Origin: an uncultured Thermotogae bacterium
GTDB lineage: Bacteria; Bipolaricaulota; Bipolaricaulia; UBA7950; UBA9294
Assembly: GCA_964523545.1 (NCBI GenBank)
Contig: CAZFZM010000005.1
Span: forward strand, 31,805-95,804
Reading direction: 5' to 3'
Length of the DNA: 64,000 nucleotides
The number at the start of each line of letters is the position of its first letter. Within the stretch, counting starts at the first letter, position 1. Of this stretch, positions 3,449 to 54,680 are shown in pieces. The translations under genes and the position numbers were made by a program. The notes beneath the pieces are model-generated. The model made no database searches and was not told where the DNA came from. It saw only the letters and a list, made by a program, of their open reading frames with translations.

Positions 3449-4456
3449 ATGCCATTCTGTGACGGGGTGAGATTGCAAGAGGCGTATCGGAGGGCGCAGG
3501 CTGAGCGCTTCGCGTTCATGGCGAACAACGTCGCCGAGCCGAACGTCCTGATCGGCCTGCTCGAAGCGTACGCCGAAGCGCGCTCGGACCTGCTGGTTCA
3601 AATCAGCCCCGGGGCGGCGAAATTCGCCGGGGGCGGCGACAAGCGGGCGGGCCTGAGGGGGCTGTCGGCGCTGATCCGCGAGCTCGCCGCGCCGTACCCG
3701 ATCTGCGTCTTCATCAACCTCGATCACTTCACGTCCGGCGAAATGGACTTGATCGAGGAGGCGATCGACGATCGCCTCGTCTCGTCGATCATGATCGACG
3801 CCTCGGGGGAGACGTTCGAGGAAAACATCCGGATCAGCCGGGCCGTCACGGAGATGGCCGAGGGAAGCGGCGTCCTTGTCGAGGCGGAGCTCGGGAAGAT
3901 CAAAGGGGTCGAGGACGAAATCTCTTCCGACGAGTCGCTGTACACGGATCCGGACGAGGCGGCCGAGTTCGTGAGGCGGACGGGGGCGGACCTGCTGGCG
4001 ATCTCCGTCGGTACCCAACACGGCGTGTCCAAAGGAAGGGATCTCGAGCTGCGGGTCGACCTGGCGGCGAGGATCCGCGATCGACTCGCGGAGAGCGGGC
4101 TCGACGCGCCGCTCGTGCTGCACGGGACGTCGGGTCTCCTCCCGGAGCAGGTGCGGGAGATGATCGGCTACGGCGTCTGCAAGCTGAACAAGGACACGCA
4201 CTATCAGTACGTCTACGGGCGGACGGCGGCCGAGTTCTTCGCCGCGCACGTCGACGGGATCATGCCGCCCCAGGACGTGGAGGACGACGTCGTCAACCTG
4301 TTCGCGAAGGGCGACTGGAGCCCGGACAAGAAGGTGTTCGATCCGCGCGCCGTCGGGAGGGAGATCCAGGCGAAGGTGCGCGAGATCGCGTCCGTGTTGA
4401 TCGAGCAGGCCGGAAGCGGGGGAAGGACGCTGCAGGAAGGGGAGGAGGGCCAGTGA
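3449..4456 (+). CDS. fba: class II fructose-1,6-bisphosphate aldolase
   Basis: 335 aa. NLDH, VEAELG and LVLHGTSG motifs of class II FBA/tagatose-bisphosphate aldolases. GAAGGAGGAGG lies upstream. Confidence 0.9.
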   Translation: MPFCDGVRLQEAYRRAQAERFAFMANNVAEPNVLIGLLEAYAEARSDLLVQISPGAAKFAGGGDKRAGLRGLSALIRELAAPYPICVFINLDHFTSGEMDLIEEAIDDRLVSSIMIDASGETFEENIRISRAVTEMAEGSGVLVEAELGKIKGVEDEISSDESLYTDPDEAAEFVRRTGADLLAISVGTQHGVSKGRDLELRVDLAARIRDRLAESGLDAPLVLHGTSGLLPEQVREMIGYGVCKLNKDTHYQYVYGRTAAEFFAAHVDGIMPPQDVEDDVVNLFAKGDWSPDKKVFDPRAVGREIQAKVREIASVLIEQAGSGGRTLQEGEEGQ

Positions 4457-45905: not shown

Positions 45906-46320
45906 AATCACGAGAGTCTGCTGTGAGCTGGCGGAGTGGAGATCTCTGGCGTTGATCCTGCCTCCGAACTCGCGGAATTCAACAAGTAAGGTTAGCTGGC
46001 TCACCGCAGCGAGCAGGTTGTCTCTCATACGAGGCAATTATCGGGGGTGTGCTCAGTTGTGATCGGCAGTGCATTCTGTTGGGAACGGAGGACGACGGAT
46101 CCATGGGGTGGGTGCTGAGAATACCAGGCAGGTATTGAATTGCTGGAATGTATCTGTACAGCTGAAGGTGCTGGTAACAGCGGCGAGGTGATCCTACCCG
46201 CTCAGCCTCTTAGACTTAGCAACTCAGGTGGTACAGCTTTTCAACCGCGCCCCAAACTTGCAATTATGAGGTAAGTATTCCAACGCCAATGATTCCAGTA
46301 ATAACTGAGGAGGCGTGCTT

Positions 46321-49300
46321 GTGAAAACGCTCGAAGGAAGCAGGACGGATATATCGGGAACCCTGCGCGCTCTGCTACTGGGATTCGTTCTGGTCGTGTT
46401 ATTCCTCGCGCTGGGCCTCAAGACCATTGGAGCAGAGTCCACAAGCGTCGCGCTCTTCCGCGCACCCGCACCGAAGGAACTTGCTCAAGGCAAGCTGTCC
46501 GCTGTTCGGTCTGGACCTGAGGTTGTGCGCACGGCATTCGTGCTTGTCAACTTCCCTCTACTGGGAGACGAGACGGGGCCGGGACCCTCGAAACGCCTGA
46601 GCCTCGATCTCTTCCCAGAAGTGATTGTCGAAGTGGAGTACCGTAGAACTGAAACGTCGATACTCGGGTTCGCATGGGTTGGCGAAACGACAAGTGAGGT
46701 GGGCGGCTTTGCTGTGTTTTCTGTCGTAGAGAACGTGCTCGCAGGAGGAGTTCTCCTGCCCAGAGCTTTCTACTCTGTTGAGCATGTAAGCGGGGCGCTC
46801 TACGCGATTCACGAAATCGATCGCAGTTCCCTGCCGCCGGAAGGAGACCCACTAGACCGGCCTGACAAGGCTGGTGCCGAAGTAAGTCGCGGATCAGGAA
46901 ACGATGATGGCTCATTGATCGATGTGATGGTTGCATACACGACAGATGCGCGAATTGGGGCAGGAGGCACTGCGGACATCCTCGCGGAGATTAACGCGGC
47001 CGTTACCTGGACAAACCAGTGCTATGAGAACAGCGACGTCGCGCAGCGGCTGCGGATGGTTCATTCGGAGGAGGTAGCATACACCGAGTCAGCTGGTGAC
47101 CTGAGTCAGGAGCTCAACGACCTAGTAGGTACGTCTGACGGTCAAATGGACAACCTACACGACCTGAGGGATGCACATGCAGCCGATGTGGTTGTGCTGA
47201 TCACGGAAACAGGAACGAACTGCGGACTTGCAGATGCTGTGATGGCGGAAGCAAGCAGCGCGTTCTGTGTCGTGAAGAGGAGCTGCGCTTCCGACAATCT
47301 GACATTCCCGCATGAGTTAGGGCACCTCATGGGTGCTCGGCATGACTGGTACGTTGACAACGCGACGAGTCCTTACTCCTATGCACACGGGTACGTGGAT
47401 CCTGGACGGTCCTGGCGGACGGTCATGGCCTACTATCATGAGTGCACGGACTGCGCCGGAAGCTTCTGTAGTCGGGAACCCTACTTCTCCAATCCTGACA
47501 TAGAGTACCTCGGCGATCCAACCGGTGTAGCAGCCGGAACGGATGTCTCATGCGCCACCGGGGATTGCAGTAACCCGAGCTGTGACGCAGATGTGGCGCG
47601 AACGTTCGACGAGACCGCGCAAACCGTTGCAAACTTCCGAGACTCCCCCGAGGGCGTTGATGCTGCCCTTGTCATCGACCGCTCTGGTAGCATGAACACC
47701 GCAGAGAAGCTGCCGAAGGCAAAGGAGGGAGCGAAGTACTTCGTCGATTCTGCGCGCTTGGGGGACCAGATCGCGGTCTCAAGTTTCGCCGGCAGCGGAA
47801 CGCTGGTGAACGCGCTGACGGAGATCACCAACGCAGATCCTGCCGGTCCGATCAAGACGGGCATCAAAGCGAACATCGATGCGATGACTGCTAGTGGTAG
47901 CACGAACTTCGGCGCCGGCTTGCAGATTGCGTATGACGAGTTGGATAGTTCGGCGACACTGCAGCCGAAGTTCGCGGTCCTGATGAGCGACGGCCACCAC
48001 AACACGGGCACCTATGCAACGCAGGTGCAAGCGTTTGACGACGCGGGTTGGTCGATTCACACGATCGCCTTCGGCAGTGATGCAGACGACACCACTCTCA
48101 GGCAGATCGCCGATGACACCGGCGGCCTCTTCTACAAGGCCGAGACCACAAACCTCACCATGATCTACGATCTCATCCGGGCCCAGATGACCAGTCAGGC
48201 GGTCCTGGCGGCACTGCAATGGCTTCTCCAACTGGGGCAGACGATTACACACTACCTCCCGCCACTCAGTCCATGGAGTACGGTGATCAACTTCCTGCTC
48301 TCATGGGCCGGAAGCGATGTCGACCTGATCCTAATCCGGCCGGACGGCACGGAGGTCACGCCGGCCGACGCCGCCCTCGATCCGGACATCACGTACTATA
48401 AGGCAGCAACGTACGCATTCTACACGGTCAACAACCCGGAGCCGGGGAGCTGGGGCGTGCGGATCTCGGGAACGGATCTCCCGGATCCCGAGATCGTCAC
48501 GCTCAGCGTCACGGCAGCAAGTCCGGTTGTGGCGGGGTTCTACGGGTTCCAGGCCGCCTATGCTCCCGGCGACGTCATTCCGATTGCGGTTCAGCTCCGC
48601 GAGCAAGACGCCTCGCCCATTCTAGGAGCAAACGTCCAGGTCGATGTCAAGGCTCCGAACGGGACGGTCCAGACCCTCGTGCTGTTGGACGATGGGGCTC
48701 ACGACGACCTGTTGGCCAACGATGGTATCTACGGCGGTGAGTACACGAGCACGCTGACAGAGGGGTTCTACGGACTCGACGTCTCCGCTACGGGCAACTA
48801 CTCGGGCGGGCCCTTCTCCATCCAGATTGTCGGACGCGTCCTGGTTGGCGAACCGCCGTCTGCTGAGGGCTTCTTCGACTTCGAGTACGCCAATCAAGCT
48901 TCCATGGACGGTGCCGGGTGGACTCGCAGCGGACTGTGGCACTTGGCCGATGAGGCAACGTGCGCGTCGCTATCGCCCGTCCCTGTGCCGTTCCCGTCGT
49001 CGACGCACGCCGCGCACTTCGGCGATCTGGCCACCGGAGCGTATGAGTCCGATGGTTCCATGGCGCCGAGGACGGCGGTTCTGGAGAGACGAGCCCAGCA
49101 GCCAGAGGCAAGTCCGCTGGCGCAGGAGGCGAGAAGCTTCGGAGAGCTGATCAGCCCGGAGATCCAGCTTACGTTGCAGGATCAAATCGACCTGCGATTC
49201 CAGCACTTCCGTTCGGTGGAGTATTACGCCGACGGCCCGTACGACAAGACCTACGTCCAAGCGCAATTCGACGGGGGCGCGTGGCAGACGGTCTGGGGCC

Positions 49301-50583
49301 TCGATTCGCGGACGCCTTCGCAGGGGGCGTGGGTTGGTGTCGGGCCGATCCCGATTCCTGTGCCAGCAGGGGCGACTGTGATGCAGCTCAAGTTCGTCTT
49401 CGACTCCGTGGACAACTACGGGAATGACGGTCTGGGGTGGCTGATCGACGATGTCTCCGTTTCGGCACCAGGACCCGTAGCACTCACGATCTCCACGCAG
49501 TACCTCCCGACTGGGAAGGTCGGGCTGGCCTACAGCGCGTCGCTATCGGCCTCCGGTGGAACCCCTCCGTACGCGTGGACTTCCACGGGCCTGCCTGAGG
49601 GATTTGCGCTCGATCCTGCGAGCGGCACGATTTCCGGCGACCCGACGACCGCCGGGACCTACGACGTCACTGTGACCGTCACGGACGCGGTCGCCGCGAC
49701 GGCCTCGCGTCAGTATCAGCTGCAGATCAACCCTGCGGAACCGCCGCCTGTCGGTATCCTCTTCGAGGAGGACTTCGCCGACACCGGTGGCTGGACGATG
49801 AGCGGGCTGTGGCACACGACCGCAGCCTTGGGATGTGCCGATCTCACCGGGTACGGGACGTCGGCCTACTACGGCATCGGTGATGCCTGCGACTACGACA
49901 CCGGGGCTCGGACAACCGGTGTGCTCACTTCTCCGGTGATCGACGTCACGGGCGCTGTGGCGGTTCGGGTTCGATTCGATCACCTGCGCGAGGTCGAACC
50001 GTTCGGAGACGGCGCATACGACCTGACGCTCGTCGAAGCCAAGCGCGGCAATGGGTCTTGGGAGGTGATATGGGCCAGGGACTCCACGTCGCCGTCAACG
50101 GCCGCGTGGGAGCAAGCGACCACGAGCTCCTTCGCGACGGACGGAGCCGATAGCCTTCAGATTCGATTCGTCTTCGACACGGTGGATCAGTGGGCGAACG
50201 ACTTCCTCGGCTGGCTCGTGGACAATGTCTTCGTGGACTCGATGCCATCCGGGACTCCACTATCGCTGATGTCGGTTCTAGAGGCTGTCCCGAGAGGCAC
50301 GGGTGGGCGGGTGGAGATCTTCAACGCGCCGAACCCTGTTCGCGAAGACGGGACGGAGTTCGTGGTGCGCGGTGTCGACGCGACTGTGCTGCAAGTTGAG
50401 GTCTATGACCTTTCCGGTACGCTCGTTTGGGAAGGACAGACCGCGGGCAACGAGCTTCCTTGGGACGGCGTAGGGACCAACGGGGAAAGACTCGCTAATG
50501 GGGTCTACCTGTACAAGGTTTCCGTCCAGATGGGGGACGCGTGGCTGGTCTCCGAGATCCGGAAGCTGGTCATCTTGCGGTAA
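46321..50583 (+). CDS. giant secreted multidomain protein: metzincin protease - vWA - beta-sandwich - 2x MAM/LamG-like - Ig-like - T9SS/FlgD-Ig-like CTD
   Basis: GTG 46321 lies 8 nt after GAGGAGG (the track start 46315 is only 2 nt after it). Signal anchor. HELGHLMGARH at 47311..47343. DRSGS MIDAS motif at 47677..47691. See findings for the remaining modules. Confidence 0.85.
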   Translation: MKTLEGSRTDISGTLRALLLGFVLVVLFLALGLKTIGAESTSVALFRAPAPKELAQGKLSAVRSGPEVVRTAFVLVNFPLLGDETGPGPSKRLSLDLFPEVIVEVEYRRTETSILGFAWVGETTSEVGGFAVFSVVENVLAGGVLLPRAFYSVEHVSGALYAIHEIDRSSLPPEGDPLDRPDKAGAEVSRGSGNDDGSLIDVMVAYTTDARIGAGGTADILAEINAAVTWTNQCYENSDVAQRLRMVHSEEVAYTESAGDLSQELNDLVGTSDGQMDNLHDLRDAHAADVVVLITETGTNCGLADAVMAEASSAFCVVKRSCASDNLTFPHELGHLMGARHDWYVDNATSPYSYAHGYVDPGRSWRTVMAYYHECTDCAGSFCSREPYFSNPDIEYLGDPTGVAAGTDVSCATGDCSNPSCDADVARTFDETAQTVANFRDSPEGVDAALVIDRSGSMNTAEKLPKAKEGAKYFVDSARLGDQIAVSSFAGSGTLVNALTEITNADPAGPIKTGIKANIDAMTASGSTNFGAGLQIAYDELDSSATLQPKFAVLMSDGHHNTGTYATQVQAFDDAGWSIHTIAFGSDADDTTLRQIADDTGGLFYKAETTNLTMIYDLIRAQMTSQAVLAALQWLLQLGQTITHYLPPLSPWSTVINFLLSWAGSDVDLILIRPDGTEVTPADAALDPDITYYKAATYAFYTVNNPEPGSWGVRISGTDLPDPEIVTLSVTAASPVVAGFYGFQAAYAPGDVIPIAVQLREQDASPILGANVQVDVKAPNGTVQTLVLLDDGAHDDLLANDGIYGGEYTSTLTEGFYGLDVSATGNYSGGPFSIQIVGRVLVGEPPSAEGFFDFEYANQASMDGAGWTRSGLWHLADEATCASLSPVPVPFPSSTHAAHFGDLATGAYESDGSMAPRTAVLERRAQQPEASPLAQEARSFGELISPEIQLTLQDQIDLRFQHFRSVEYYADGPYDKTYVQAQFDGGAWQTVWGLDSRTPSQGAWVGVGPIPIPVPAGATVMQLKFVFDSVDNYGNDGLGWLIDDVSVSAPGPVALTISTQYLPTGKVGLAYSASLSASGGTPPYAWTSTGLPEGFALDPASGTISGDPTTAGTYDVTVTVTDAVAATASRQYQLQINPAEPPPVGILFEEDFADTGGWTMSGLWHTTAALGCADLTGYGTSAYYGIGDACDYDTGARTTGVLTSPVIDVTGAVAVRVRFDHLREVEPFGDGAYDLTLVEAKRGNGSWEVIWARDSTSPSTAAWEQATTSSFATDGADSLQIRFVFDTVDQWANDFLGWLVDNVFVDSMPSGTPLSLMSVLEAVPRGTGGRVEIFNAPNPVREDGTEFVVRGVDATVLQVEVYDLSGTLVWEGQTAGNELPWDGVGTNGERLANGVYLYKVSVQMGDAWLVSEIRKLVILR

Positions 50584-50765
50584 CCTGGTCCGTCCCTCCT
50601 TCCGTAGGATGATCGCCCGGTCGATGTCGCCTGGACGGACAGCCGTCATGGGGAAGGTCGACAAACTCCTTTGCGTTTCGTGACTTCAGTCGGTGCCTGT
50701 GAGCGTTGCGTCCGTATGCTCAGTGCGGGACTGATTCCAGCTTGCGCATAAAGAAGGAGGTCCTC

Positions 50766-53714
50766 GTGAGAAGCCTTGTCTTGTGCCTGGCATTGGGGTG
50801 CCTTTCGCTTTCAGTATTCGCTGCTCCGACGTTTACCGATCAGAGCGTGGAGGCAGGGCATCTCAACCCCGGGGACACGGAGATAGCCGTTCAGACGGTC
50901 CGAGTGACGGGTGACTCTACCCACGCTACGGACTTCAATGCGATCCAGATCCGCAATGGCGGGACCGCTACGTATCAGCAGATCACTCGAATCGAAGTCC
51001 GAGACGGCGGGACCACAATCGCTGCAATGGACACACCGATCGGTCTGACCTCGCAGAGTGGAGTGACGATCGCGACGACCCATTCGCTGCCGGCGGGAGA
51101 TACCGAGGATCTCCGGATACTGGTGTGGGTAGGGGATACGAGTGCGGTTCAGGGCGGCGAGACGCTGCAGTTCGAGGTTAGGTTCCACTACTACCTGAAT
51201 GGTACGGCGGGAACGAGCCGATGGATTGCGGATGGCCAGGATGAAGACATAACGCATACCGGCTTCGAAAACATCAACGACTCCTCACCGGCCGCGAACA
51301 ACTACAACCCCGGTGACGAAGGGACAGTCCAGCGAGTGAGCTTCAGGGACGAGGACGCGAACACGTCGGACCAGACCGTGACGACCGTGCTGATTCAGAA
51401 CACGGGAACGGCCACCGCCGACGACTTGGAGAGTCTGACAGTTGCTATCACGCATGGCGGAGGCACGTGGCAAGAGACGAAAACGACCGGGCTGGCCGCC
51501 TGGAAGAACGGAGGCATCGTCTTCGATCCTCCCGACATTCTCATCGGTGATGAGGACCAGCTCACCGTGGAGGTCGATGTCGAAATCGCTGCTCCTACTC
51601 CTACCGTTCCGACTGACAACCACACGATACGCACGAGGACAACGCTGAACGTAACCGAGAATGCGCAGGCTTTCAGTCAAGAGGTCGTCGCCTCGACGAC
51701 ACAACGGATACGAAAGGCAGGGCTTGAGGAGGTCGAGGACGACAGCACGATCCCTCCTTCTGGTGTGCTCAATCCGAATGAAACGCTGACTCAGAAGATC
51801 ATCGTCCGCGATCGGGACATCAACGCAGAGCGGGTCAACGTTACGCGCCTCTGGGTGCGTAACCTCGGAACTGCGGCCGAGACCGAAATCGAGAGGATCA
51901 TCGTGCGAAGCGGCGGCGCGCCGCTCGGTACGTTCACCGGAGCTCAGATCGCTCCATTCCTGACGGGGGTGTGGCTGGATATCACGGACGTGCTCGTCGC
52001 CAATGAGGGAGACCGCACGTTCTTCATCGAGTACGAGATTGCCTCCAGCCAGACTCTTCAGCCGCAGGTGAAGCTGGAGTGCAACGAGGACGGAAACGTC
52101 TATACCACCCTTCCGGTTGACTATCCCGCTCCGGTCACATTGTACGGAGCAGGACTGGAGATCCTCGAAAACGAGAACCTGACGACAGAGACGGTCTATT
52201 CATTCCAGAGGTTCTGTGCTCAGAAAATCCGCATGGAGGACCTCGACGAGAACACCAACTCGGTCACGGTGAACCCTGTGGTGTGCAAGAACCAAGGGAC
52301 TGCCGCCGACAGCGAGATTGCCAGGATCGAAGTGCGGAACGCGGACGGGGCTCTGCTGGGAGAGACAACTGAGATCGGAGGGTTCAACGCAGGTGGCGTG
52401 ACGATTCCGACATTGAGCAACAACGCCGTCTCCGATGACTCGGAGGGGTACCTCTGGATCTGGGTTACTCTGGCGGGGACAGAAGACACAGTCGCGGGCC
52501 ATACGGTCGAACTGCAGACGACGGTTTTCCACACCGAGGGAGGAACCTCCTACAACCGAGCGGTCCAAGGAAATCCATGGACGATCGCTCTTAACAATCG
52601 TCCGGTGCCGGACTTCACCTTCGAGGAGGCGGCCGCTCCGGCGTCGGTCCGGCCGATGGCCGACTTCACCTACGAGGACACGATCCAGTTCAACGGGACG
52701 GCGACCGACCCGGACGGCGACGACATCGTCGAGTGGCACTGGGACTTCGGAGATGGGAACACCTCGGACGAGCAGAACCCGACGCACCAATATCCGAACG
52801 GAGGGACGTTCGACGTGACCCTGACGGTGACCGACGAGCACGGCGTGACCGGTTCGGTGACGAAGACGATCGAGGTCGAGGGGCCGCCGAACGAGGAGCC
52901 GACGATCGACGAGCTGACGGCCGATCCGGAGAACCCGGCGGTCGATCAGGACGTCGAGTTCGCCGTGACGGTGACGGATCCCGATCAGCCCGCCGGAACG
53001 GCGTTCGGCTACGAATGGGACTTCGGCGACGAGGCGACGAGCACCGTCGCGAATCCGACGCACAGCTACGACGAGGAAGGGACCTACACGGTGACGGTGA
53101 CCGTCACGGACGCGCAGGGGGCGACGGACACGGCGACGATCGACGTCACCGTCGGGAACGACCCGCCGACGTTGACCGGAGTCACCGCGAATCCGGCGAC
53201 CGCAGGCACCGGGGACGAGGTCGCCTTCACCGCCACCGGCTACGACGATCCGGACGACGACGCGGTCGGCCACTACGAGTGGGACTTCGACGACGGGACG
53301 ACGACGGAGACCGACGGAGCGACGGCCAACCACATCTTCGCGACGCCCGGCACGTACACCGTCTCGGTGGTCGCAGTGGACGAGCGTGGCACCGAGAGCG
53401 CGGCGGTGACCGTGCAGGTGACCGTGACCGGCCCGGCGCGGACGATCCTGTTCGCCTTCCCGAACCCGGCGGAGACCAACGCGACGTTCAACTACTTCCT
53501 GCCCGACGGGGCGACCGATCCGGTCCTTCGGATCTACGGCCTGCTCGGCGAGTTGGTCTTCGAGCAGGAGCTTCAGGAGGACGGAACGCCCTTCGTGTGG
53601 GATCTCCGCACGGCCGGGGGGGACAGGTTGCCGAACGGCCTCTACTTCTGCGTCGTCACGGTGACGGGAGCGAACCGGTCGGCGGTCTTCCGCCTGCTGA
53701 TCGACCGCCAATAG
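50766..53714 (+). CDS. secreted protein: four uncharacterised ~140-aa tandem modules, three PKD domains, T9SS/FlgD-Ig-like CTD
   Basis: GTG 50766 lies 5 nt after GGAGG. Signal peptide LVLCLALGCLSLSVFAAP. The modules share ..V.V.D.D.N...V..I.V.N.GTA....I..I.VR.G. PKD cores WDFGDG, WDFGDE and WDFDDG are present. Confidence 0.85.
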   Translation: MRSLVLCLALGCLSLSVFAAPTFTDQSVEAGHLNPGDTEIAVQTVRVTGDSTHATDFNAIQIRNGGTATYQQITRIEVRDGGTTIAAMDTPIGLTSQSGVTIATTHSLPAGDTEDLRILVWVGDTSAVQGGETLQFEVRFHYYLNGTAGTSRWIADGQDEDITHTGFENINDSSPAANNYNPGDEGTVQRVSFRDEDANTSDQTVTTVLIQNTGTATADDLESLTVAITHGGGTWQETKTTGLAAWKNGGIVFDPPDILIGDEDQLTVEVDVEIAAPTPTVPTDNHTIRTRTTLNVTENAQAFSQEVVASTTQRIRKAGLEEVEDDSTIPPSGVLNPNETLTQKIIVRDRDINAERVNVTRLWVRNLGTAAETEIERIIVRSGGAPLGTFTGAQIAPFLTGVWLDITDVLVANEGDRTFFIEYEIASSQTLQPQVKLECNEDGNVYTTLPVDYPAPVTLYGAGLEILENENLTTETVYSFQRFCAQKIRMEDLDENTNSVTVNPVVCKNQGTAADSEIARIEVRNADGALLGETTEIGGFNAGGVTIPTLSNNAVSDDSEGYLWIWVTLAGTEDTVAGHTVELQTTVFHTEGGTSYNRAVQGNPWTIALNNRPVPDFTFEEAAAPASVRPMADFTYEDTIQFNGTATDPDGDDIVEWHWDFGDGNTSDEQNPTHQYPNGGTFDVTLTVTDEHGVTGSVTKTIEVEGPPNEEPTIDELTADPENPAVDQDVEFAVTVTDPDQPAGTAFGYEWDFGDEATSTVANPTHSYDEEGTYTVTVTVTDAQGATDTATIDVTVGNDPPTLTGVTANPATAGTGDEVAFTATGYDDPDDDAVGHYEWDFDDGTTTETDGATANHIFATPGTYTVSVVAVDERGTESAAVTVQVTVTGPARTILFAFPNPAETNATFNYFLPDGATDPVLRIYGLLGELVFEQELQEDGTPFVWDLRTAGGDRLPNGLYFCVVTVTGANRSAVFRLLIDRQ
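50859..52595 (+). repeat. four tandem coding repeats of an unrecognised ~140-150-aa module
   Basis: Approximate units, in track-ORF numbering: aa 52-190, 199-340, 353-485 and 495-630. Aligned by eye on NPGD/NPNE ... N.GTA ... I.RIEVR anchors. Confidence 0.65.
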
Positions 53715-53726
53715 GAGGGAACGACT

Positions 53727-54680
53727 GTGAAACGGACCAAGATCGTTGTGATGGTGGCCCTCCTCAGCGTGGGGCTGGGCCTTGCGGGGGGCGCGCAGCA
53801 GGCGCAGACCGTCTTTGAGATCGAACCGGGCGTCGGCATGCTTGGAGCGGCCGCCGCGGGGCTCTCCATCGTCAGCGGAGCGGAGACGCTCTACTACAAT
53901 CCGGCGAGCCTCTCCGAGCTTTCGGGGATCAGCTTCAGCTCGTTCTACGCCTCGTACTTGGGACAGGCGAGCTACTCGGCGTTGGCCCTGACGTTTCGCA
54001 ACTGGGGCGTGGCGGCGCTGTTGCTGGGGTCGACGGGGATTCAGGGGTACGACGACGACGGGAATCCGACGGACACCCTCGCGTACCGAAACACGGGCTT
54101 CCTGTTCGGAGTCGGACTCGATCCGAGCGATCTCCCGTTCCTGCCGAGCTTCGCGATCGATATGTCGCTCGGCGCGCGGATCAAGATCCTGAGAGTGCGG
54201 TTGGGGGAAGCGACGGGGAGCGGCTTCTCCTTCGACCTCGGCTTTCGCACGGCCTTCCCCGACATGCATTTCGGCGGTTTCGGCGTTTCGGATGTCGCGT
54301 TGGGGGTCACGGCCGTCAACCTGTTCGGCGGGGTCGCCTACGACACGGCCGACGACAGCTTCCTGATGGACATTCAGATCGGCGTGTCGGCGTTGTTTGC
54401 TGAGATGGTCCGCGCGGCGTTCGACGTGCACCTCTCCGGGGCGGTCCATTTCGGCGTGATCTACGAGCCGATGCCGACCTTCGCATTGCGCTTCGGAGTG
54501 ATCTCCCGGGACGGTGTGTCGGTGACCGCCGGCCTCGGCATCAACGTGGAAGGATTCCTGCTCGACTACGCGTACGTCACGCACACGCTCGGCGGGACGC
54601 ACCGCGTCTCGCTCACGCTCGACTTCTCGAGCCTCGACGTCAGTGCGCTGAGTCGCTCGTTGAGGCGTCTCCTTCCGTGA
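53727..54680 (+). CDS. PorV/PorQ-like outer-membrane beta-barrel protein
   Basis: 317 aa with signal peptide. GVGMLGAAAAGLSIVSGAETLYYNPASLSEL resembles the PorV/PorQ N-terminal signature (GMGGA...A.yyNPAgL). Strand-like segments alternate throughout. Starts 13 nt after the preceding CTD-bearing gene. Confidence 0.6.
   Translation: MKRTKIVVMVALLSVGLGLAGGAQQAQTVFEIEPGVGMLGAAAAGLSIVSGAETLYYNPASLSELSGISFSSFYASYLGQASYSALALTFRNWGVAALLLGSTGIQGYDDDGNPTDTLAYRNTGFLFGVGLDPSDLPFLPSFAIDMSLGARIKILRVRLGEATGSGFSFDLGFRTAFPDMHFGGFGVSDVALGVTAVNLFGGVAYDTADDSFLMDIQIGVSALFAEMVRAAFDVHLSGAVHFGVIYEPMPTFALRFGVISRDGVSVTAGLGINVEGFLLDYAYVTHTLGGTHRVSLTLDFSSLDVSALSRSLRRLLP

Follow-up and report, generated by a model that had tools for sequence, protein, structure and literature searches.

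A candidate Ig-like beta-sandwich family in a predicted outer-membrane-anchored, adhesin-like protein of Bipolaricaulota

Results

An uncurated family of ~150-residue immunoglobulin (Ig)-like beta-sandwich domains probably forms the distal ~600 residues of an outer-membrane-anchored, adhesin-like protein of the Bipolaricaulota. The protein is encoded in a 64,000-nucleotide stretch of DNA (here called the window) from an uncultured member of this phylum (contig CAZFZM010000005.1, positions 31,805 to 95,804), by the coding sequence (CDS) 50766..53714 on the forward strand. Based on the open reading frame (ORF) list and the translation (P0001/P0002), its product is 982 amino acids (aa) long, and P0002 in the protein collection is identical to it. 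We refer to this product as the module protein and to its repeated domain as the module, and we give the interpretation above a probability of about 0.6.

Four tandem units and their boundaries

The original prediction, made by eye from the sequence, placed four tandem copies of a module in the N-terminal part of the protein. Pairwise Smith–Waterman alignment of the units bears this out. Scores range from 74 to 112, against means of ~30–36 for shuffled sequences (z = 6.8–13.9), and for every pair of units the observed score was reached by 0 of 500 shuffles, so the internal similarity is significant. Self-BLASTP of the N-terminal 640 aa returned the identity match only, relaxed settings included, and the Smith–Waterman alignments with shuffles were used instead. 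A hidden Markov model (HMM) built from the four units matched the protein four times in succession, at aa 29–177, 176–330, 331–474 and 473–613. The anchor motifs that had been quoted are all found: NPGD at aa 34 and 181, NPNE at aa 336 and GTA at aa 66, 214, 368 and 511.

AlphaFold2 (AF2) was run on two targets, the four-unit region and unit 3 alone, using an alignment of 40 orthologues. The mean predicted local distance difference test score (pLDDT) is 92.5 and the predicted TM-score (pTM) 0.69 for the four-unit model, and the corresponding values for unit 3 are 93.6 and 0.88. Every unit is all-beta with 10–11 strands, to which unit 3 adds one short helix. Both models being confident and all-beta, they support the beta-sandwich suggested in the original prediction.

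The repeat phasing needed adjustment. The interval first proposed, 50859–52595, falls within the units and its phasing is equivalent, but it is shifted, the true boundaries lying ~14 aa upstream of NPGD. We place them there because both AF2 models have a short first strand at that distance before NPGD (TFTDQ, GFENI, GLEEV and GLEIL in units 1–4) and because single-unit relatives have a matching strand, G[LF][ED].[IV].D, directly behind the signal peptide. The leading strand keeps its strand state in the isolated unit-3 model, which suggests that it pairs inside its own domain. With these boundaries the units are ~145–153 aa each and together span nucleotides (nt) 50823–52607.

Comparison with known families

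The whole protein and its 579-aa repeat region were compared with Pfam by hmmscan at E ≤ 1. No match to CARDB, DUF11, PKD, Big or cadherin families was obtained within aa 28–625, in agreement with the original prediction, which could not place the module in the PKD, Big, CARDB or cadherin families; nor did these scans give the high-confidence match to a known Pfam domain that would have argued against a new module. Aa 28–625 have no match of any kind at E ≤ 1, whether in Pfam or in NCBIfam. PKD (PF00801/PF18911) is absent from aa 20–614, its matches being confined to aa 629–887, and the matches to Big_2, Big_9, Big_13 and Cadherin are sub-threshold and all lie in the PKD region at aa 726–796. 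When 35 diverse units were compared with Pfam individually, the best result was one sub-threshold CARDB match (E = 2.3e-4), and no Pfam family matched more than one unit. A profile search of PDB sequences retrieved designed and natural WD40 repeats only, through many partial matches of 8–12 bits, and was rejected as a repeat-summing artefact. Literature searches on the S-layer and PKD proteins of the Bipolaricaulota/Acetothermia and on TTHA1873 yielded no description of the module or of the protein.

The nearest candidate among known families is the CARDB/DUF11 group, of which the unit could be a strongly diverged E-set domain enlarged by extra strands. Like the module, these domains are extracellular beta-sandwiches, arranged in tandem in proteins that are secreted or sit at the cell surface, and the x-V-x-N-x-G-T-A strand-turn of the module resembles the CARDB signature and the V-x-N-x-G-(T)-A motif of the group. 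A profile made from four sequences matched P0111 and P0122, two proteins with CARDB repeats, over profile positions ~32–75, which correspond to this V.N.GTA strand-turn. We rejected these matches: with a profile of 142 non-redundant units the same two proteins reach no more than −5 to +2 bits for each domain; because the matches are lost with the richer profile, we read them as sums of many weak motif matches. Profile–profile comparison with CARDB repeats by hhalign gave a probability of 0.5% or an empty local alignment. Neither CARDB (PF07705; gathering score 22.7 bits) nor DUF11 (PF01345) matched the protein or the repeat region at E ≤ 1, and DUF11 does not appear in the list of the 25 families hit most often by the 35 units, one of which, as noted above, matched CARDB. 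In the fold comparisons described below, a DUF11 protein ranked 14th in the viral search (TM-score 0.46), but none of the 50 PDB fold matches listed for unit 3 is described as CARDB or DUF11. The module, with ~150 aa and 10–11 strands, is also ~50% longer than the domains of this group (~100 aa in CARDB), and it opens with a G[LF]E strand and contains an invariant Q and the D-x-D-x-N / D / E cluster, none of which is, to our knowledge, part of the CARDB/DUF11 consensus. A relationship at the superfamily level is possible; the profile and fold comparisons that were run give it no support, and we consider a diverged CARDB/DUF11 domain unlikely.

Comparison with known folds

Foldseek comparison of the four-unit model returned only generic multi-Ig proteins with TM-scores ≤ 0.25. 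As this was uninformative, the single unit was modelled. Unit 3 gave 39 PDB matches at E ≤ 1e-3 with probabilities of ~1.0, but the TM-scores are only 0.32–0.52 (best E = 5e-6), and the proteins retrieved are generic sandwiches: the GH123 N-terminal domain, TTHA1873, and ASH/PapD-like, TRAP, cohesin-like and MG domains. Nothing above a TM-score of 0.53 was found for unit 3 in a viral structure library. The best matches (E = 5e-6 to 1e-4, probability 1.0) are the N-terminal domain of GH123 beta-N-acetylgalactosaminidase (8p4l, 5fr0, 5l7u) and Thermus TTHA1873 (7wrk). These sandwiches are similar in size to the module, but the TM-scores of 0.42–0.49, root-mean-square deviations of 7–14 Å and identities of 10–16% go without a sequence relationship and, unlike the module, they are not known as tandem surface modules. 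Judging from the models, the module most likely belongs to the Ig-like sandwich class and to no curated family.

The identity of these matches raises the question of carbohydrate binding, in which the modules would catch polysaccharide at the cell surface. The best fold matches are non-catalytic sandwiches of glycoside hydrolases (GH123, dextranase, amylopullulanase), the protein ranked fourth in the viral search comes from a phage and is annotated 'Bacteroidetes-Associated Carbohydrate-binding Often N-terminal', and the conserved acidic cluster could hold a sugar-ligating Ca2+. The similarity, however, amounts to TM-scores of only 0.4–0.5 and does not involve known sugar-binding sites, the family consensus has no conserved aromatic platform, and the module-bearing proteins scanned contain no catalytic glycoside-hydrolase domain at full-protein significance. 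We regard carbohydrate-binding modules as an improbable explanation.

Position-specific units and a conserved residue cluster

Across 41 four-unit proteins, the best match of each unit in the other proteins is the unit of the same ordinal position (41/41, 41/41, 41/41 and 40/40 for units 1 to 4). The quadruplication is thus older than the split between these orthologues, whose hosts belong to several families of the phylum. The units show no concerted evolution, and by this comparison the four-unit array appears ancient. Units from proteins of other architectures match unit 4 best in 57 of 104 cases.

The positions most conserved across the whole family are Q342 (94%) and N365-x-G-T-A369 (92%, 75%, 63% and 91%), together with D348-x-D350-x-N352, D412 and E440 (numbering of the 982-aa protein). 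D348, D350, N352, D412 and E440 are 88–100% conserved in units 2, 3 and 4. In the other architectures the cluster positions are 84–88% conserved, and position 352 is N in 42% and D in 38% of these units. In unit 1, all five positions are replaced in 41 of 41 proteins, by G/N, a gap, S/A, A/K and L/V/T, respectively. The coordinated loss of the five residues argues for one functional site. From the alternation of strands in the model, D-x-D-x-N (B–C loop), D412 (F–G loop) and E440 (H–I loop) would lie at one end of the sandwich, and such an oxygen-rich cluster is probably a site for Ca2+ or another metal. By the same residues, unit 1, at the predicted tip, is a distinct subtype. We considered a cadherin-like inter-domain site, for which D-x-D-x-N would be needed only after another unit, and rejected it since single-unit proteins keep the motif.

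Distribution of the family

The module family is rare: when 1.84 billion cluster representatives were searched with a profile, only 115 proteins passed E ≤ 1e-3, and 30 of these reached E ≤ 1e-30. About 40 close homologues have the identical domain order, and those that are named come mostly from Candidatus Bipolaricaulota/Acetothermia. Of 184 Bipolaricaulota genomes, 97 contain the module; it is present in 42 of the 71 genomes of high quality and, counted by genus, in 38 of 54. The genome from which the window comes has it once. An orthologue (P0014) is also encoded by strain J31, which was brought into culture recently. Beyond the phylum, copies are sporadic.

Other proteins bear the module in different contexts (listed in Table 1), where it usually occupies the membrane-distal N-terminus of surface proteins. 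In the protein of Haloferax mucosum (P0099/P0149, WP_049915302.1), the module is a single copy at aa 33–183 with a score of 63 bits, and because this haloarchaeal protein, annotated as a surface glycoprotein, carries it, the family spans the boundary between bacteria and archaea. P0089, of 2257 aa and from a cluster of Candidatus Aquicultor secundus, contains several module-like domains that Pfam does not recognise, followed by C-terminal MtrC/MtrF-like motifs. A full-architecture orthologue of 1005 aa (P0029, from NCBI) is labelled 'Candidatus Methanomethyliaceae archaeon' and lies on a 3.2-kb contig, which is probably mis-binned Bipolaricaulota sequence and not evidence of an archaeal gene.

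The C-terminal domain and the downstream gene

The part of the module protein that follows the units consists of recognised domains. PKD_4 (1.1e-52) and PKD (1.9e-35) each match in three stretches, and the C-terminal domain (CTD) scores 29.6 bits against TIGR04183 of NCBIfam, above the curated cut-off of 23, so that it qualifies as a sorting domain of the type IX secretion system (T9SS); Pfam matches to FlgD_ig and CHU_C at the C-terminus are sub-threshold. At the other end of the protein, the frame in the ORF list extends to 1002 aa from a TTG at 50706. We take the GTG at 50766 as the real start, because a GGAGG Shine–Dalgarno sequence precedes it and the N-termini of orthologues open with the same hydrophobic MRSL... 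In orthologues a conserved A-P-[TS]-F-[TS]-D motif comes after the hydrophobic N-terminus. A lipoprotein signal, suggested by LALGC, was rejected, the Cys being missing from most orthologues.

The product of the next gene downstream matches the PorV/PorQ profile NF033709 over positions 5–326 of 326 (E = 2e-14) with 53.9 bits, under the cut-off of 90, which points to a distant relative of PorV/PorQ and not to a member by the NCBI threshold. All 22 orthologous loci retrieved from across the phylum (L010, L012 and L013–L032), J31 and a distant metagenomic contig among them, have a homologue of this PorV-like gene immediately 3′ of the module gene and on its strand. The two genes form an invariant two-gene unit.

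In the T9SS of Bacteroidota, the CTD of the cargo is recognised by PorV and processed by PorU. The module protein is alike in that its CTD passes TIGR04183 and a PorV/PorQ-like barrel is encoded next to it. We looked for canonical T9SS parts in five genomes of the phylum, of which two are single-contig assemblies (96% and 99% complete). Matches to PorU cover CTD-like tails only, GldM had no match, but the control genomes gave none either, and SprA matched only as a 20–25-bit patch over ~50–90 residues. On these results, and with GldK, GldL and GldN not searched, the module protein does not qualify as canonical T9SS cargo. Also unlike the Bacteroidota, the Bipolaricaulota lie outside the FCB (Fibrobacterota, Chlorobiota and Bacteroidota) group, and here every cargo gene is paired with a neighbouring PorV-like gene of its own.

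The SprA-like patch sits in a conserved protein of ~1400 aa, of which it is the sole NCBIfam match (20–23 bits, cut-off 200). This protein is encoded in the window's own genome (contig C29, L033:4123-8400) and in G025 (L034:871-5001, minus strand), and also in G005, G006 and G013; it is 29% identical over 1276 aa between families (E = 1e-129). In five genomes it lies within a few kb of pairs of CTD-cargo and PorV-like genes, and together they are a candidate minimal T9SS-like set. On C29 the pair is a second one in this genome (L033:1269-3563 and 3455-4405), formed by a subtilase (Peptidase_S8) with a FlgD-Ig/CHU_C-like tail and the PorV-like ORF that follows it.

The envelope to which the CTD would attach the protein has been described for strain J31: a preprint reports that the cell is diderm and bears a toga, and that its S-layer is hexagonal, with a spacing of 6.25 nm (bioRxiv 10.1101/2025.11.21.689855). 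Another proposal is that the module protein is the subunit of such an S-layer on the toga, with the modules building the lattice. It would suit the orthologue in J31, which has the hexagonal layer on its toga, the presence of the module in a haloarchaeal protein named surface glycoprotein, and the position-specific and ancient units, as in multi-domain S-layer proteins. The spacing, on the other hand, seems small for a ~100-kDa subunit of eight domains and would better fit a porin-type array such as Thermotoga Omp-beta. In addition, the gene occurs in just 97 of the 184 genomes, the protein has a CTD as its anchor and no S-layer homology (SLH) domain, and the portion of the J31 preprint text searched names no S-layer protein. 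An S-layer subunit therefore seems to us a rather poor prospect.

Nucleotide composition and the upstream gene

The observation that the repeats occupy the low-GC part of the gene was correct, with a GC content of 0.590 in the units and 0.679 in the PKD domains and CTD. At third codon positions (GC3) the values are 0.72 and 0.92, against 0.82–0.87 in the other neighbouring genes, and the step is sharp, falling between the windows that start at 52566 and 52641, at the junction of unit 4 and the first PKD domain (52566–52715). Among the seven orthologous loci measured, GC3 over the modules is below that of the remaining ORF in six and about equal to it in the seventh (module/rest: J31, 0.75/0.91; L009, 0.71/0.86; L008, 0.53/0.71; L005, 0.59/0.67). 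Because distant orthologues repeat the same direction, the contrast is a property of the gene family and not of this genome.

The gene upstream, at 46315–50583, encodes a 1422-aa reprolysin-VWA-He_PIG protein with a CTD-like tail. Its GC3 is 0.72 overall, 0.51–0.68 over the first ~1.3 kb and 0.70–0.82 beyond, and it is missing from both of the orthologous loci with upstream genes that were examined. That this protease gene and the module region are a recent lower-GC import, leaving a chimera joined at the module/PKD junction, is very improbable: their shared GC3 and the sharp step would fit, but the recurrence of the contrast in distant orthologues, the conservation of the entire architecture across the phylum and the closest relatives, which match both halves, speak against it.

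Table 1 Features of the module gene and its surroundings, and other proteins that carry the module
Feature	Position	Strand	Basis or remark
Shine–Dalgarno GGAGG	50756..50760	+	5 nt before GTG; read from sequence
Whole CDS: signal peptide, four modules, three PKD domains, T9SS-type CTD	50766..53714	+	ORF list, translation
Sec signal peptide MRSLVLCLALGCLSLSVFA, then APTF	50766..50822	+	read from sequence; cleavage site inferred
Unit 1, aa 20-166	50823..51263	+	HMM, AF2 strands; without D-x-D-x-N / D / E cluster, tip subtype
Unit 2, aa 167-319	51264..51722	+	HMM, AF2 strands; longer G-H insertion APTPTVPTDN
Unit 3, aa 320-463	51723..52154	+	AF2 single-unit model, Foldseek; modelled alone
Unit 4, aa 464-614	52155..52607	+	HMM, AF2 strands; subtype nearest most units of other architectures
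Three PKD domains, ~aa 620-887, probably stalk	52623..53426	+	Pfam
T9SS type A sorting / FlgD-Ig-like CTD, aa 898-978	53457..53699	+	TIGR04183
PorV/PorQ-like outer-membrane barrel gene	53727..54680	+	NF033709; starts 12 nt after module-gene stop
P0098 (Logan)			module N-terminal, then PKD domain
P0100 (ENA), 384 aa			module N-terminal, CTD at protein end
P0110, Anaerolineae, adhesin-like			module N-terminal, then six tandem-95 repeats and CTD
P0097, Acetothermia			module N-terminal, then InlB B-repeats
P0099, Haloferax mucosum 'surface glycoprotein'			module N-terminal
P0089, Candidatus Aquicultor			internal copies in giant protein, multihaem cytochrome motifs at end

Discussion

From tip to anchor, the module protein would consist of unit 1, units 2–4, three PKD stalk domains and the T9SS-type CTD. 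Its signal peptide would carry it through the inner membrane by the Sec pathway, after which the CTD would be recognised by the dedicated PorV/PorQ-like barrel encoded downstream. This barrel may serve to export the protein, to retain it at the cell surface or to do both. A projecting arm would be formed by the PKD domains and units 2–4, in which the residue cluster of units 2–4 probably binds a metal ion such as Ca2+ and stiffens the domain, and unit 1, in which the cluster is lost, would be the candidate ligand-contacting tip. We infer from this arrangement a fibrillar adhesin with head, stalk and anchor, held in the outer membrane (the toga). As judged by its Pfam and NCBIfam domains, the architecture fits the fibrillar-adhesin class, with a predicted adhesive function. 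The N-terminal position of the module in P0110, P0100 and P0099 counts in favour of a head.

Fibrillar adhesins such as PrgB of Enterococcus (8beg) resemble the module protein in having a signal peptide, distal domains, a repeated Ig-like or PKD stalk and a C-terminal anchor. The Ig-like array of PrgB is the top Foldseek match of the four-unit model (E = 2e-19), but with a TM-score of 0.25 the arrangement of the domains differs. PrgB is anchored by LPXTG, and the module protein by a T9SS-type CTD that would act with a PorV-like partner. The host, too, differs from that of PrgB in being a toga-bearing diderm. The likeness to adhesins is one of architecture.

Several points weigh against this interpretation. 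Tandem repeat domains of fibrillar adhesins usually form the stalk and not the head, and the modules may be purely structural. The closeness of the five cluster residues rests on strand–loop alternation and co-loss, not on measured distances. The score of the downstream gene is below that required of PorV/PorQ, and because canonical T9SS parts are missing, the proposed route of export and anchoring is tentative. The module went undetected in 87 of the 184 genomes searched, including 29 of the 71 high-quality ones, and is therefore not essential. The members of the family are known from sequence and predicted models alone.

A more far-reaching version of the adhesin interpretation, which is speculative and which we think doubtful, is that the module protein and its PorV-like partner, perhaps with the ~1400-aa protein, make up a self-contained device for surface display that works without a canonical T9SS, in a deeply branching phylum of toga-bearing bacteria. 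The array would then be the principal metal-stabilised adhesin of the phylum, with unit 1 as its ligand-binding tip. If this were true, the module would found a new family of adhesin heads and stalks, and the system would offer a view of minimal or ancestral CTD-dependent sorting.

The advance itself is modest. Ig-like surface domains are often found anew, and the module is a new domain family in a very familiar class and not a new kind of biology. It nevertheless accounts for ~600 residues of a protein that is present in about half of the Bipolaricaulota genomes searched and is at present labelled by its PKD tail only ('PKD domain-containing protein'). The definition given here supplies a name, boundaries and a signature, which runs G[LF]E strand, P-G, Q, D-x-D-x-N, N-x-G-T-A, D, E. 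The joint loss of five residues in unit 1 provides a clean hypothesis of one functional site, probably for a metal. The pairing of the module gene with a PorV-like gene, in a phylum apparently without a canonical T9SS, gives a handle on surface display in toga-bearing bacteria, a question that has become approachable with strain J31, the reported first isolate.

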